From assembly GCA_008632985.1 (NCBI GenBank), contig QPGO01000104.1, positions 1 through 64,000 of the forward strand: a stretch of 64,000 nt of DNA, written 5' to 3'. Under the pieces are notes generated by a model. The model did not search any database. It saw only the letters and a list, made by a program, of their open reading frames with translations, and was not told where the DNA came from. Shown here one piece after another: positions 1-62,900 of the stretch; the first letter of the stretch is position 1; each line of letters begins with the position of its first letter. The stretch comes from Psammoneis japonica. Taxonomy: Eukaryota. The position numbers and the translations under genes are program-made.

Positions 1-205
1 AGCACGGTGACGGAAAAGGGACAGACGAAACGTCTCACCTCCGCATGCGCATTTCTCACCTGGGATGAAAACACATCTGGCAAGTTCGCAACACGCAGAA
101 CCTGCACGCGAATTTGTGGCATGTTCAATCCGACTGCATGCCTCCTGAGAGGTGCATCACGAGACGCGCTCTAGAAAACAATCAACACAAAAAATCGATC
201 ACACC

Positions 206-2465
206 ATGTCGTCTTCAAGCGATGGCACTGACAACACAAATGGCGCCAACCAAGTGCCACCAACGCAAGACAGCAATGATGGTGGCATGCCTCATGACAA
301 GGACATGGGGCTTGTGCCAACCCCTCACCTCTTTGATCAAAAGCTGTTCATGCCCTTGTGTGTTTGTGACGGCGAAGAACTGTCTGCAGAAGAAAAGACG
401 CTTGCGGATGCGAGCATCATGTCAATGAAAGACGGGTTCCAGCTCTAGGTGGGACCTCGCACTGCTGAACTGTGACACAATTATTTTTTATCATCCGTCG
501 TATGTTTCGCACGTACATTTCTACGTGTTCTATTATAAAAAATTGTTCCACACTGCCTGTTTTGCGAAGCCAAAGGCTTTCTGTTATCTGCACTTATGTC
601 AATAAAAATGCGCTGGGTGTGTTCTTTAATGTCTAAAGAACATACCCGGGCATACTGTAAAGAATGTACTTCAAGTGTGGAGGAGGAGATACGTTCGCAA
701 AATTGCCTCTTTTTCTGTTGGCGATCATCAACACATTCATTGCTCAACAATTTTACTGCGGAGCTCGCACGTAGAATTCTACGGGCCCAATGTCACAAAA
801 AGTCCCACCTAGGACTGGAACCCGTCGAAAGTGGCCGGTCTCAGATCTCTTTGCCACAAGTGCAAGCATTTTCGTGATGACAATCCCACACCAAAAAGCG
901 TTTCCACCACAGGCAATTCTGGCCACTTGAAGAAGCGTCTGATGACGCGGTTCTGCGTCTTCCGGCAGGAAGAAGCACGCATCGACAAGCGCCCCTTCAG
1001 CGCTTCCAAGAACTGGAGCCAGGCAGAAGATTCTCACATCATTGAGATTTTAAGTGACCCGACCTTCCAGAAACCCCTCCAGTGCCTTCACCAAAAGGCT
1101 CCACATGTTGTGCTTGACGAAGGTGACCCGCCCCTCATGTCTGTGCACCGACAATTCATTGCTGTTTTGTGCAACAATTTTGACAAGTGCAAACCGACCC
1201 ATCAGTTTCCAGATGACCCACTTCTCAAAGCCTTCAATCCCAATGACAAGACCATTTCTTCCCGTGCTCCAGATGTCTTGAAATTGAGGGTTGGACAGCT
1301 TCGCAGCAGGTTGACAGCAGTGCACAAGGTCGGCACGAAGAGCGGCTCAGATCCGGAAGGTTTTGAGAATGCTCTTGATCTGACTGACCCACTGGGCCAA
1401 TCCATTCTCTGTTGGTGGAAGGCAATTGACCGAAATGGTGGTTCATCTGTTCTCAACAAGTTTGTGTGCCTCCTCCCAGGTGGCTGTGGCATTGACTCGT
1501 CGGATCCCAGCACCATTCAACGCAGCCTGGACGCCGCCAACTCCATCTTGCGCAGCAGGGGAAAGGGTGACAGCTCCTCCAGCAAGTCACAGAGCATGTC
1601 TGAAAGAATCTTGAATGCAGTTGGTGAGATGAAAAGCGACATGATGAATGAGGAAAACAAGGAGAACACGTTTTTCTTGCAGCAGAACAGAGACCGCGCA
1701 CAGAACAAGTCGGAGCGACTGGCCGACGAGATTCGGGCCATGAGGTGTGGAAAGGCTGGTGACTTGAGCAAGCGTGAGAGAAAGATCAAGCAGTGCAAAA
1801 GAGCCCAGAGTGAGTGTGAAGAGCTTGAGAAAGAGGTGGTGAAAGCGCAAAAAGTTGAGTTGGACAGTGACATTGAGCACGACGACGCTTCTTTTCTTCT
1901 GTCTGTGCTGTCCAGCAGCGGCGACGACGAGGTGAGTGCCTTGCATGTTCTTTGTGCTGTTTGTGATGTCAATGATTTGCACCAACTCAACCTTTGCTGC
2001 AAACACAAGAGCCGCCAATGCCACATCAGGAACAAATCCAGGGAAGTCTCTGCTGGGAACTGCTCTGATGGCCACGACCGAGGGAGTGGGTCTACAGAGC
2101 TGGAAGAAGATGTCCATTCTGACAGCAAGAGCGATTCACGCAATGAATCAGTGCACTGCGGCTACATGGAATGCAACAAGCGGAATGAGCCGGTTGGAAC
2201 GAAAGATGAGGCAGAACACCACGATTTCAACTGCTCGGATTTGGGTTCCTGGTCTTCAAACATGTGCTCCAACTTTGAACATTGTGGGCGTTGCTTGCAT
2301 CGTGTTGGTTGCAAAGCTCACCTTGACGAAGATGACCCTGCTTCCCTGACTTGTGGGCACCCTGATTGCACTGGCGGGTCGGAAGTTTGTGCATTTGCAT
2401 CGTGCACCAATGTGGACAACAACACTGCGGATGGTGATTTTCCGTCTTCAGACAGCAGTGAGTAG
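206..2465 (+). pseudogene. Putative PIF/Harbinger ORF1 (accessory, possibly Myb/SANT-like), split by a MITE
   Basis: 206-430 joins in frame to 831-2465 once the MITE and one TSD are removed (...SMK|VAGLRS...). It has a W-x-x-x-E-D motif (NWSQAEDSHII) and is convergent with a Harbinger transposase. Only one Tyr in the 544-aa ORF. Confidence 0.55.
431..826 (+). mobile_element. 396-bp MITE, copy 1 (25-bp TIR, 4-bp TSD GAAA)
   Basis: Ends GACGGGTTCCAGCTCTAGGTGGGAC / GTCCCACCTAGGACTGGAACCCGTC, with GAAA at 427-430 and 827-830. Homologous copies at 33743 and 37224. Confidence 0.95.
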
Positions 2466-61100: not shown

Positions 61101-62900
61101 GAGAACCGGCAGCAGAAGCTCCCGAATTGGCAGTGGCAGATGCACCTGCAAGTCTGCATTGCGGTTTCAATTGGTTGCTGTTGTTGTCCTGTGCACTCTC
61201 TCACAAAGCATTTTACATTCATTTGCAATGAACAAGGTGGATCAGAGCAATGTTGCTTCACCTGACTGGCCCAGAATCAGCTTTGCCGGGTCGGGAGCCG
61301 GCGGCAGAAGCGACCAAATCTGCCACGGCGGATGCACCAGCAAGTCTGTGTTGTGGTTTCAATTGGTTGCTGTTGTTGTTCCATGCACTCTCACAAAGTG
61401 TTTTGCACTTCTTTGCAATGATTTGCCATTGTGAACAGAGTGTCACTCATTTGAAGGCATTGCGTTTGGATTGCTTGCCATGTCTCAGTGTCAAGATTGT
61501 GCTCTCAACTGCGTGGGAGTGCAAGCAGAGTTCAAAGAGGTCCAAGCTTGTGCTTGCAAAGGCAGTGGTGCATTTCACCTTTGCTGCAGTGAGCTCTGGC
61601 TCCGCCATTTTGTGCATCAGCTTTGCACCTTTCTCTTGGACTTCAGTCGTTGCCTCTTTGAATTCATTGACAAGCCTTTGTCTCCATCTGTGTTGTTTAA
61701 ATTAAGCGCAAACAACAAAATGGAACGTTCACAATGCAAACAATTTTAAATTGCAGGTTTTGCAGGAATGGAGGGTGGGCACTCTCACAGGGAAAATGGT
61801 TGGCTGTTTCACAGTGAATGGTGTTGCCTCACAGGACAGTCGCGGGCTCCACAGCAACAAAGTTTGTCTTTCACAGTTAACAAATTGTCACCACACACAC
61901 AACTGGCAAGGTTTGAAACCACAAAATTTTTAACTGTGACAGATTAAAAAATTCACCATGAGAAAGTTGGTCTGATCACTGTGTTGCACGCTCTGATGGC
62001 TGCACAGACAAACATCGCCATTGCCAAAAAAACACAGCCAATGCAGAGCACAAGATTTGTCATGGCTTCCATGCTTGCTCTTTTGCAATGCTTTCAGGAG
62101 ACACATGTTTTTGCCTTCTTTGCAAATTTGTTTTGCAGCTTGCTCCCACACACCACACTCAATGCTGTTGTCGTCAACACAGAAAAGTCTCTCCCCAAGG
62201 GGCATTTGCACCATGTTTTGGCTGGCATGCTCCAACCCAAAAAGCCACTGCACAATGAACAGCAGCAGCTAGGCTGAGAATGACAAAGCAAGCTGGCCAA
62301 CTTTTTTAAGCTGAAGCTCACAACCTGCAGCCACACGACGAATTGTGAGTGCAGCACACACAGCAGCATGCTGGTGCTTTCATCGACAGGAGCAAGAAAA
62401 AACTGACAAGACAATGGCTTGAAGTCTTCAACAGCAAACACAATCAGAGCACATTGGCCAGAGCCAAAAGCTGCAACAGGGTGCCATCTCAGCAGACATG
62501 ATTGTGAAAGAACGCAACTTGGCTGCTCCCATTGCAACATGCGCAGATCCACTGCAGCAGTTTTCTTTGGCTGCTGGTGTGTGATGATGGCATAAAGCCA
62601 AGCAGCAATGCACAAAACAAGGCACTTTTTGTGACTGGATTGACTTGTTTCAGATCAACAGAAACTTTCAATTGAGCAAAATTTGGACATGGGACAACAG
62701 AAAGGAGCACAGTGAGAGAAGAAGCTCAACTTTGCTTTGCACCCACCAACAACTTTTTCAGATGACTTTGCGGCTGCCCCCACCCTGTCTCCCACAACAT
62801 GTAACTGAAGACAAAGAGCAAGCTGTCATCAAGGATTGCATTGGTGATTGGTTGATTGTTGGTTGAGGGACTCTGGGCAGAGCATGAGGCTCGTGTTTCT
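55150..62900. other. Strongly TpA- and CpG-depleted domain 4 (old, unclassified repeat relics)
   Basis: Both TA and CG are nearly absent over 55250-59900. Local duplications at about 60730/60901 and 61107/61300. Confidence 0.85.

Follow-up and report, generated by a model that had tools for sequence, protein, structure and literature searches.

What can strip a genomic region of nearly all its TpA dinucleotides and leave the genes in between ordinary? The question is raised by a 64-kb stretch of DNA from Psammoneis japonica (positions 1 to 64,000 of contig QPGO01000104.1, GenBank assembly GCA_008632985.1), the whole of which was analysed and is called the window here. With a sliding-window profile and a two-state segmentation we delimited four TA-poor domains, at about 1-17521, 23019-25303, 33982-44765 and 54846-62994, which together cover ~38 kb, or about 60% of the window. 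Their six blocks (37,984 bp) have 175 TA between them; 200 mononucleotide shuffles give an expectation of 2338 +/- 36. A sequence-only reading of the window had earlier described four blocks of transposable elements (TEs) and pseudogenes as almost free of TA beside normal neighbouring genes, with about four TA between 831 and 2465; the counts agree, and the figure of four is exact (positions 1051, 2093, 2163 and 2463). The TA of these domains was lost in place by mutation, in the direction A:T->G:C at TpA.

In the TA-poor state of the segmentation (38,648 bp, including two F-box calls discounted below as false positives), the ratios of observed to expected counts (o/e) are 0.07 for TA, 0.47 for CG, 1.63 for TG and 1.70 for CA, at a GC content of 50.3%. 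The other 25.3 kb of the window give 0.62, 0.99, 1.16 and 1.18 at 46.8% GC, and the change is roughly GC-neutral, as had been anticipated. From block to block TA varies between 0.04 and 0.11, TG between 1.51 and 1.96 and CA, listed separately, between 1.41 and 1.95; CG lies between 0.24 and 0.60 across the five large blocks and at 0.85 in the 437-bp end piece (8-444). The longest run without a single TA measures 1921 bp (57942-59862, in domain 4). The summed frequency of the pyrimidine-purine steps (YpR: TA, CG, TG and CA) is 0.2428 in the blocks and 0.2441 outside, an equality expected if transitions merely redistribute TA and CG into TG and CA. The strands are balanced, with 4008 TG and 3915 CA overall. 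Block edges are sharp, the blocks end within a few hundred bases of the adjoining genes, and the genes between them are ordinary. Two TA-poor calls of 0.3 kb (32630-32951 and 45981-46314) were dismissed as false positives: they lie in two F-box genes, at homologous places where CpG is normal.

Domain 1 (816-17521, 16.7 kb) retains 78 TA and has o/e values of 0.074 for TA, 0.60 for CG, 1.63 for TG and 1.61 for CA. It forms one domain with the left-end DNA at 8-444 (1 TA, o/e 0.04), from which it was split by the insertion of a miniature inverted-repeat transposable element (MITE). Pfam matches place pseudogenes of the neprosin and TPR kinds and a weak Harbinger-type relic in it, next to a tandem-repeat stretch; the latter (2481-3998) consists of diverged units, ~65-69% identical at offsets of ~180-540 bp, and carries most of the TA that survives in the domain. 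Domain 2 (23019-25303; 6 TA, TA o/e 0.041, CG o/e 0.28) stops ~230 bp short of the start codon of the gene that follows (ATG at 25531). Domain 3 is a single domain interrupted by an insertion: its left part (33982-37231) keeps 14 TA (TA o/e 0.076, CG 0.46) and its right part (37609-44765), which houses a long terminal repeat (LTR) element and the eroded copy of a duplication, keeps 46 (TA o/e 0.112, CG 0.47). Domain 4 (54846-62994; 30 TA, TA o/e 0.058) shows the strongest CpG erosion, with a CG o/e of 0.24, and Pfam searches gave no match in it.

The direction of change can be read from a segmental duplication found by self-BLAST. Its intact copy (29845-33011) holds a VOMI-domain gene (Pfam 4e-23), intergenic DNA and an F-box gene at a TA o/e of ~0.5-0.7. 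The second copy (42707-46362) reaches with its left part into a TA-poor domain; the eroded part spans 42707-45107, and the eroded copy contains an internal tandem duplicate (43497-44421 and 44450-45346) and a weak VOMI relic (E 0.029 at 42808-43293). With the intact copy representing the ancestral sequence and the strands folded, 0.5 is the maximum rate, one change being enough to destroy a site. Among the 53 TA of the intact copy, 38 appear in the eroded copy as TG (21) or CA (17) and 2 as TA; among its 71 CG, 46 appear as CA (27) or TG (19) and 6 as CG. In the first segment compared, A>G affected 44/106 TpA and 73/609 other NpA (P=8e-12), the latter composed of ApA 21/196, CpA 28/201 and GpA 24/212; in the second, the counts were 19/57 and 21/275 (P=1.5e-6). 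Three pairs of paralogues that both lie in normal DNA, pooled over both directions, served as a control and gave 69/532 at TpA vs 284/2811 elsewhere (P=0.054). The excess of A>G at TpA over ApA, CpA and GpA that a mutational origin predicts is present. C>T likewise concentrates at CpG, with 52/137 vs 83/557 at CpH in the first segment (P=1.2e-8) and 25/71 vs 23/255 in the second comparison.

Runs tests detect no strand clustering (P=0.45 for TA, n=38 events; P=0.19 for CG, n=46), and strand-coordinated clusters of the type left by a processive single-strand deaminase were rejected on these 38 + 46 events only, none being seen. Among 67 strand-resolved conversions, flanking preference is weak: C 0.49 > T 0.34 > G 0.28 > A 0.19 at position -2, and C 0.40 and T 0.39 vs G 0.25 and A 0.23 at position +1. 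The 175 surviving TA of the blocks, compared with TA of normal DNA, are scarce in ATAC, ATAT and ATAG (0.04, 0.09 and 0.22 of expectation) and in excess in CTAA, TTAA and CTAG (3.55, 3.27 and 2.1). They may be newly arisen TA or may sit in a resistant context.

An LTR retroelement in domain 3 (38907-42449) dates the changes relative to insertion. It belongs to a high-copy family and is bounded by LTRs of 276 bp (38907-39182 and 42174-42449) with TG..CA ends and a 5-bp target-site duplication. The two LTRs differ at 10 runs, all of them within YpR (3 TA vs TG/CA, 4 CG vs TG/CA and 3 TG vs CA), and there is no other difference in 277 bp. Since LTRs are identical at insertion, these changes were made after integration. 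The TG<->CA double changes were considered as a special event and rejected as such: an ancestral TA or CG was resolved to TG in one copy and to CA in the other. TG or CA sites of the window copy read TA in other family members at 11-49% of depth, so the family is not TA-poor in itself. The element is less eroded (TA o/e 0.18, CG 0.72) than its older flanks (TA 0.04-0.06, CG 0.16-0.18).

A MITE family supplies a third comparison. Its members are 397 bp long, have inverted repeats of ~25 bp at their ends and are flanked by target-site duplications of 4 bp that vary in sequence; they fall into two subfamilies, ~76% identical, and their summed depth of ~62,000-68,000, vs ~55 for single-copy DNA, corresponds to roughly a thousand copies. 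Three copies lie in the window. Copy c1 (431-826) has 23 TA and forms a TA-normal island (446-810, o/e 0.72) inside eroded DNA. So does copy c3 of the diverged subfamily (37224-37619, minus strand), with 31 TA and an island at 37239-37603 (TA o/e 0.88, CG 1.59). These 23 and 31 TA, like the TA of other LTR-family copies, show that the TE families did not start out TA-poor. Copy c2 (33743-34138, depth ~62,000), at the edge of domain 3, is partly eroded and has 13 TA; polarised with the two other copies, 7/13 of its derived changes fall at TpA and 4/13 at CpG, and it has lost 10/23 TA and 4/18 CG. An 18-base conserved MITE word also occurs at 31 environmental loci, which we took as chance, the match extending over only 18-29 bases; those loci are ordinary in composition (TA o/e 0.43-0.91, CG 0.84-1.50).

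A protein family gives a fourth polarisation. The neprosin-domain pseudogene of domain 1 (10276-11172, plus strand; Pfam PF03080, 3.1e-40) was compared with 96 homologues. It keeps the conserved Tyr in 1 of 17 columns, with Cys in 8 and His in 3, and other conserved residues in 103/142 (P=1e-7 vs Tyr). Cys and His are the products of TA>TG and TA>CA in TAY codons, and the loss of Tyr codons had been foreseen. Conserved Arg is kept in 0/5 columns, two having become Cys as CpG decay of CGN codons predicts. A kinesin-light-chain-like TPR pseudogene in the same domain (13529-15099, minus strand; TPR_10 1.7e-54) reads S-C-N-N-I-G in most of its repeats and S-Y-N-N-I-G in one. Paralogue, MITE, LTR and neprosin polarisation all support the earlier proposal that the loss is mutational. 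That proposal also held that related copies differ almost entirely at TA, CG, TG and CA, which is true of young pairs: the LTRs (10/10), the 98%-identical tandem duplicate (5/6 difference runs) and two MITE copies (~20/24 substitutions). It is not true of the intact/eroded pair, which is 72% identical and has many substitutions outside YpR too.

How are the targets chosen? The erosion edge at ~44,800-45,250 falls inside the duplicated unit and is common to TpA and CpG erosion: left of ~44,795, 0/9 TA and 0/24 CG are kept, the state is mixed up to ~45,250, and right of 45,269 CG is mostly kept. An edge inside a duplicated unit, of which only the in-domain copy is eroded, argues for targeting by chromatin domain and not by repeat pairing as in the repeat-induced point mutation (RIP) of fungi. 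The segmentation and this shared edge also agree that erosion is confined to silent TE and pseudogene domains that show CpG decay. The term "repeat-restricted" used in the sequence-only reading therefore holds only in part: TE and pseudogene domains alone are affected, but the edge cuts a duplicated unit, low-copy pseudogenes are eroded and two embedded MITEs are untouched. The targets include a retroelement, MITEs, a weak Harbinger-type relic, dead genes of host type and a bacterial-like relic, which indicates an action on any DNA and not on RNA copies. Given a normal starting composition, TpA would decay roughly 2-4 times as fast as CpG in the same DNA. Compared with other sites, TpA decay is faster by at least an order of magnitude, as follows from the 0 non-YpR differences between the LTRs.

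We consider it probable that these are silenced domains undergoing regulated TpA hypermutation, most likely of the kind reported from the alga Bigelowiella natans, in addition to CpG decay. The blocks would be silenced domains that contain transposons, duplicates of genes now dead and the relic of a bacterial-like gene, and two fast, dinucleotide-specific transition processes would act on them in place. The first would be ordinary CpG->TpG/CpA decay, expected from cytosine methylation; diatom TEs are CpG-methylated. The second and faster would convert TpA to TpG or CpA, changing one base per TpA, with the two strands equally likely to be affected, until hardly any TpA is left. Targeting would be by domain, with coinciding edges of TpA and CpG erosion. 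The DNA itself shows in which direction the process runs, its dinucleotide specificity and its restriction to domains, that it treats both strands alike and acts after insertion, and that it outpaces CpG decay. As for the enzyme, our first guess would be a DNA-acting adenine deaminase of the TadA/ADAT2 type. In tRNA the natural target of ADAT2/TadA, A34, invariably has U33 before it, and this would account for the 5'-T rule. That such DNA chemistry is possible is illustrated by amphioxus ADAT2/3, a tRNA adenosine deaminase described, in the available part of the paper, as able to deaminate A and C in DNA (PMC10354150). Recruitment may depend on a chromatin state that carries 5-methylcytosine (5mC), and the role may be genome defence. 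The expected effects would be the loss of Tyr codons, including those for catalytic Tyr and for the YxDD motif of reverse transcriptase, of TATA and AATAAA motifs and of TAA and TAG stops, with no new stops.

Before a single 2026 preprint, a natural process that directs A:T->G:C mutations to particular DNA was, to our knowledge, all but unknown. That preprint, as far as its accessible text goes, reports from mutation-accumulation lines of B. natans that integrated viral DNA is hypermutated from TpA to TpG/CpA, and it overturns the earlier statement that no pathway of this kind had been described (bioRxiv 10.64898/2026.01.13.699255). Two viral inserts mutate ~1000-fold above the rest of the genome; 230/231 de novo mutations in them are A>G or T>C, all at TpA, with events at ~1e-7 to 1e-6 per site per generation in some lines only (bioRxiv 10.64898/2026.01.13.699255). 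The preprint also counts 124 TpA-depleted, CpA+TpG-enriched clusters, and the authors' candidate is an ADAT2-like DNA adenine deaminase (bioRxiv 10.64898/2026.01.13.699255). In the text of the preprint that is available, "CpG" has 0 occurrences and diatoms are likewise unmentioned (bioRxiv 10.64898/2026.01.13.699255). Apart from this preprint, whose supplementary tables, possibly listing taxa or contexts, lay outside the search, our searches brought up no paper describing TpA erosion, either in diatoms or in other organisms; a paper on diatom retrotransposons (PMC2806351) nowhere uses "hypermut-", "dinucleotide", "deamination" or "RIP".

The window and B. natans, as the accessible text describes it, are alike in several ways. 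A>G or T>C at TpA gives TpG or CpA on either strand, in discrete regions beside an ordinary genome; long-term TpA-depleted, CpA+TpG-enriched clusters are enriched in TE domains; and the bias is GC-ward, opposite to the usual one. They differ in that the host there is a chlorarachniophyte (rhizarian) and here probably a diatom (stramenopile), and in degree, with a TA o/e of 0.04-0.11 over ~60% of the window here vs a Rho of 0.45 in the region derived from a nucleocytoplasmic large DNA virus there. Erosion here is co-extensive with CpG decay. It affects TEs and dead genes, host or bacterial-like, and no viral hallmark was found; mutations were seen directly there and are known here from the footprint alone. 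The interpretation offered by the sequence-only reading was right in kind and is partly supported, with the difference that a precedent now exists. What is new here is a second lineage, with a much more saturated instance of a process known from one preprint and with boundaries shared with CpG decay.

Several points weigh against this reading. No mutation event was observed directly, and the evidence is a footprint in one 64-kb window, with ancestral states that come from paralogues and protein families and not from an outgroup genome. The reads used for verification may share one sample with the assembly. MITE copies c1 and c3 are untouched though embedded in eroded DNA; the process may be episodic, the insertions may be very young, or short elements may escape. 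In an F-box paralogue at 45,500-45,750, outside the eroded domain, 5/6 TA and 0/10 CG are converted, small numbers which suggest that TpA erosion may extend beyond CpG erosion there and that the coupling of the two may not be strict. The skewed context of the surviving TA is not reproduced by the 67 polarised conversions. The only natural ADAT2 shown to edit DNA, that of amphioxus, prefers the motifs GAA and TCG and not TpA, as far as the available text of that paper reports (PMC10354150). No viral hallmark genes were found in the blocks by Pfam searches and by searches of viral_contigs tried with two frames of many, which leaves the "foreign DNA" parallel with B. natans only partial. Finally, the host is probably a diatom as judged from one marker gene, that for ribosomal protein eS1 (51082-51891); its closest named homologues are from diatoms, at 79-85% identity (Thalassionema 85%, Mayamaea 83%, Cyclophora 81%; also Eucampia and Helicotheca).

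Among other explanations, one makes thymine the target. A TET/JBP-type dioxygenase at work in methylated chromatin would oxidise 5-methylpyrimidines at YpR, and the resulting 5-hydroxymethyluracil (5hmU) or 5-formyluracil (5fU) at TpA would pair with G, giving T>C; the same machinery could add to the loss of methylated CpG, and both erosions would then go back to a single YpR-directed activity. Mispairing with G is a property of 5fU, and in dinoflagellates 5hmU occurs preferentially at TpA. T>C at TpA is indistinguishable from A>G on the opposite strand, and TpA and CpG erosion share one boundary and together conserve the YpR total. The two are nevertheless uncoupled in degree, since domain 1 combines a CG o/e of 0.60 with a TA o/e of 0.074 and the F-box paralogue lost TA without losing CG; in the accessible text the authors of the preprint also favour deamination (bioRxiv 10.64898/2026.01.13.699255). 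We regard a thymine-directed oxidase as unlikely.

The sequence-only reading had named error-prone patch repair of the Pol-eta type as an alternative, triggered by the T:G mismatches of 5mC deamination and producing A>G at WA (A after A or T) near methylated CpGs. The WA signature of Pol-eta is established, and TpA and CpG erosion do occupy the same domains. WA mutagenesis should raise ApA as well, and ApA (21/196) behaves like CpA (28/201) and GpA (24/212) and not like TpA (44/106). Moreover, TpA decays faster than CpG, which would make the supposed trigger rarer than its consequence. Patch repair is accordingly very improbable, the ApA count in particular speaking against the suggestion.

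Scarcely credible, in our view, is that the blocks were TA-poor on arrival from a horizontal or viral donor, or have been held TA-poor by selection or biased gene conversion. The closest named homologues of the neprosin relic are bacterial, and most block DNA has no recognisable homologues, as a foreign origin would have it. Yet host paralogues and TE copies outside the blocks are TA-normal at homologous sites, the change of Tyr to Cys or His indicates a TA-containing ancestor, and the LTR-LTR differences arose in place. Biased gene conversion would lack TpA specificity, and ApA, CpA and GpA are not raised. Arrival in a TA-poor state is contradicted for the polarised segments; domain 4, which has no relatives, is excepted.

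Base modifications can produce systematic miscalls in some long-read data, and the TA-poor state could in principle be an artefact of sequencing, base calling or polishing at modified bases of methylated DNA. We aligned Logan contigs of a public run, X1, to 33001-53000; it is one of three public runs (X1-X3) from one sample and study, possibly the source data of the assembly. Over low-copy TA-poor stretches the X1 contigs have a word depth of 57-70, next to 48-58 in adjoining genes, and they match the assembly with 1 difference in 35739-36464 (726 bases), 4 in 43524-44305 (782 bases) and 11 in 42455-43455 (1001 bases), that is, 1-11 differences per 0.7-1.0 kb. Very high-copy stretches lie at 33668-34334, 37003-37669 and 38337-43005, with a summed depth of up to ~137,000 vs ~55 for single-copy DNA; the low-copy stretches 34335-35668 (depth ~87-92) and 43006-44339 are equally TA-poor. 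The read-derived contigs show the same TA-poor sequence as the assembly. Contig accuracy at a depth of 57-70 excludes noisy reads, which makes a base-calling artefact extremely unlikely. The eroded copies, at 72% identity, also have indels and many other substitutions, the insertions come with target-site duplications, and erosion is graded.

Just as implausible is A-to-I editing of TE transcripts by an ADAR-like or ADAT-like enzyme, with the changes entering DNA when the transcripts were reverse-transcribed and reinserted. An LTR retroelement does make up part of the eroded DNA, and RNA-editing deaminases favour a 5' U, as the accessible text of the preprint notes (bioRxiv 10.64898/2026.01.13.699255), but gene duplicates, the neprosin pseudogene and intergenic DNA are eroded too, both strands are affected equally, the LTRs of one inserted element differ, so that the changes postdate integration, and the erosion edge runs through a duplicated unit.

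The hypermutation that we favour resembles ADAR hyperediting and APOBEC3 activity, which are also clustered transition hypermutation against selfish nucleic acids, ADAR-type enzymes sharing the preference for a 5' U. Those enzymes have RNA or pre-integration single-stranded cDNA as their substrate, and their tracks are strand-specific and limited to retro-copies, whereas the changes here come after integration, are strand-symmetric and include non-retro DNA. With methyl-CpG decay it shares the same blocks, where an excess of CG>TG/CA is present; such decay cannot remove TpA, which is lost faster here. Like fungal RIP, it hypermutates repeated or selfish DNA region by region, through transitions at particular dinucleotides, and destroys coding capacity. 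RIP turns CpA into TpA and raises TpA/ApT, and the direction here is the opposite: in the TA-poor state TpA/ApT is 177/2021 = 0.09 and (CpA+TpG)/(ApC+GpT) is 8017/4369 = 1.83. RIP mutates both duplicates, and here only the in-domain copy is changed; RIP makes stop codons, which TpA erosion cannot do, removing TAA and TAG instead. RIP itself was rejected on account of its direction and because C>T at CpA (28/203) is not raised, being similar to CpC (23/167) and CpT (32/187).

The effect on stop codons is visible in the open frames of the window. Per kb, the blocks contain 2.0 TAA, 1.4 TAG and 22.1 TGA triplets, compared with 9.9 TAA and 9.5 TAG outside. Because TpA erosion removes TAA and TAG and cannot create stops, dead sequence retains very long open frames, which persist by the erosion itself and are not evidence of function. 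A frame of 550 codons (813-2462, plus strand) with 1 Tyr, 29 Cys and 23 His is probably a dead coding sequence, its length being far beyond chance even with TGA at ~22 per kb; it has no Pfam match, no viral-contig relative and no usable Atlas lead (best score 0.76).

Other frames in the blocks add to their inventory of relics. For the neprosin relic, the closest named homologues are neprosin family prolyl endopeptidases of actinomycetes (39-47% identity) and the best matches overall are metagenomic proteins without a name (~50% identity); the gene may have been acquired horizontally and have lost its function in a silenced domain. A possible PIF/Harbinger DDE transposase relic (4319-5101, minus strand) has a weak match to DDE_Tnp_4 (E 0.013) under the Pfam cut-off. 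Directly upstream, on the same strand, 5105-5491 matches Recombination endonuclease VII below the threshold (E 1.4e-4, 22.1 bits vs a cut-off of 23.6). The LTR element may be non-autonomous, as no recognisable reverse transcriptase or integrase was found in its 3.5 kb. It carries an open frame of 691 codons (39252-41324, minus strand) with an N-terminal domain at residues 36-180 and a middle made of a tandem peptide repeat. The N-terminal domain (~140 residues) has 142 representative relatives at E<=1e-3, with 0 Pfam families in 16 homologues, and is possibly the Gag-like N-terminus of diatom retroelements; a single-protein search of metagenome_contigs found no relative of the protein. In TA-normal DNA, three plus-strand paralogues of ~460-520 codons (25453-26934, 27771-29026 and 46527-48101; 72-78% DNA identity) form a lineage-specific family with no Pfam domain and only seven metagenomic relatives; the paralogues themselves did not turn up in the protein collection searched, in which this genome is evidently not annotated. 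The window contains one N, at position 26996.

These results bear first on how such DNA is recognised. A computational marker follows from them: TpA o/e near 0, TG and CA near 1.7, an unchanged YpR total, and the loss of Tyr codons and of TAA and TAG. For annotation, gene finders will call false genes in eroded DNA, since TAA and TAG are gone and TpA erosion makes no new stops, and homology searches will miss Tyr-less relics. The enzyme, if found, would be a natural DNA editor of adenine (or thymine) with a strict dinucleotide rule, and the mechanism would be testable in transformable diatoms if model species show the same footprint. We also offer, tentatively and as a conjecture that may well prove wrong, that TpA-erasing hypermutation is an enzyme-driven genome defence of distant lineages of the stramenopile-alveolate-rhizarian (SAR) group, a diatom and a chlorarachniophyte, and no peculiarity of a single alga; it would be recruited by methylation-carrying chromatin, run faster than methyl-CpG decay and, jointly with that decay, drive every self-complementary YpR step to TG/CA, possibly as one YpR-directed machinery. 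If true, it would be the mirror image of fungal RIP, leaving GC content and reading frames nearly intact and so being missed by scans based on GC or on RIP indices. With a saturated footprint in a second lineage, the process would prove to be widespread and of sufficient age to shape the composition of genomes.

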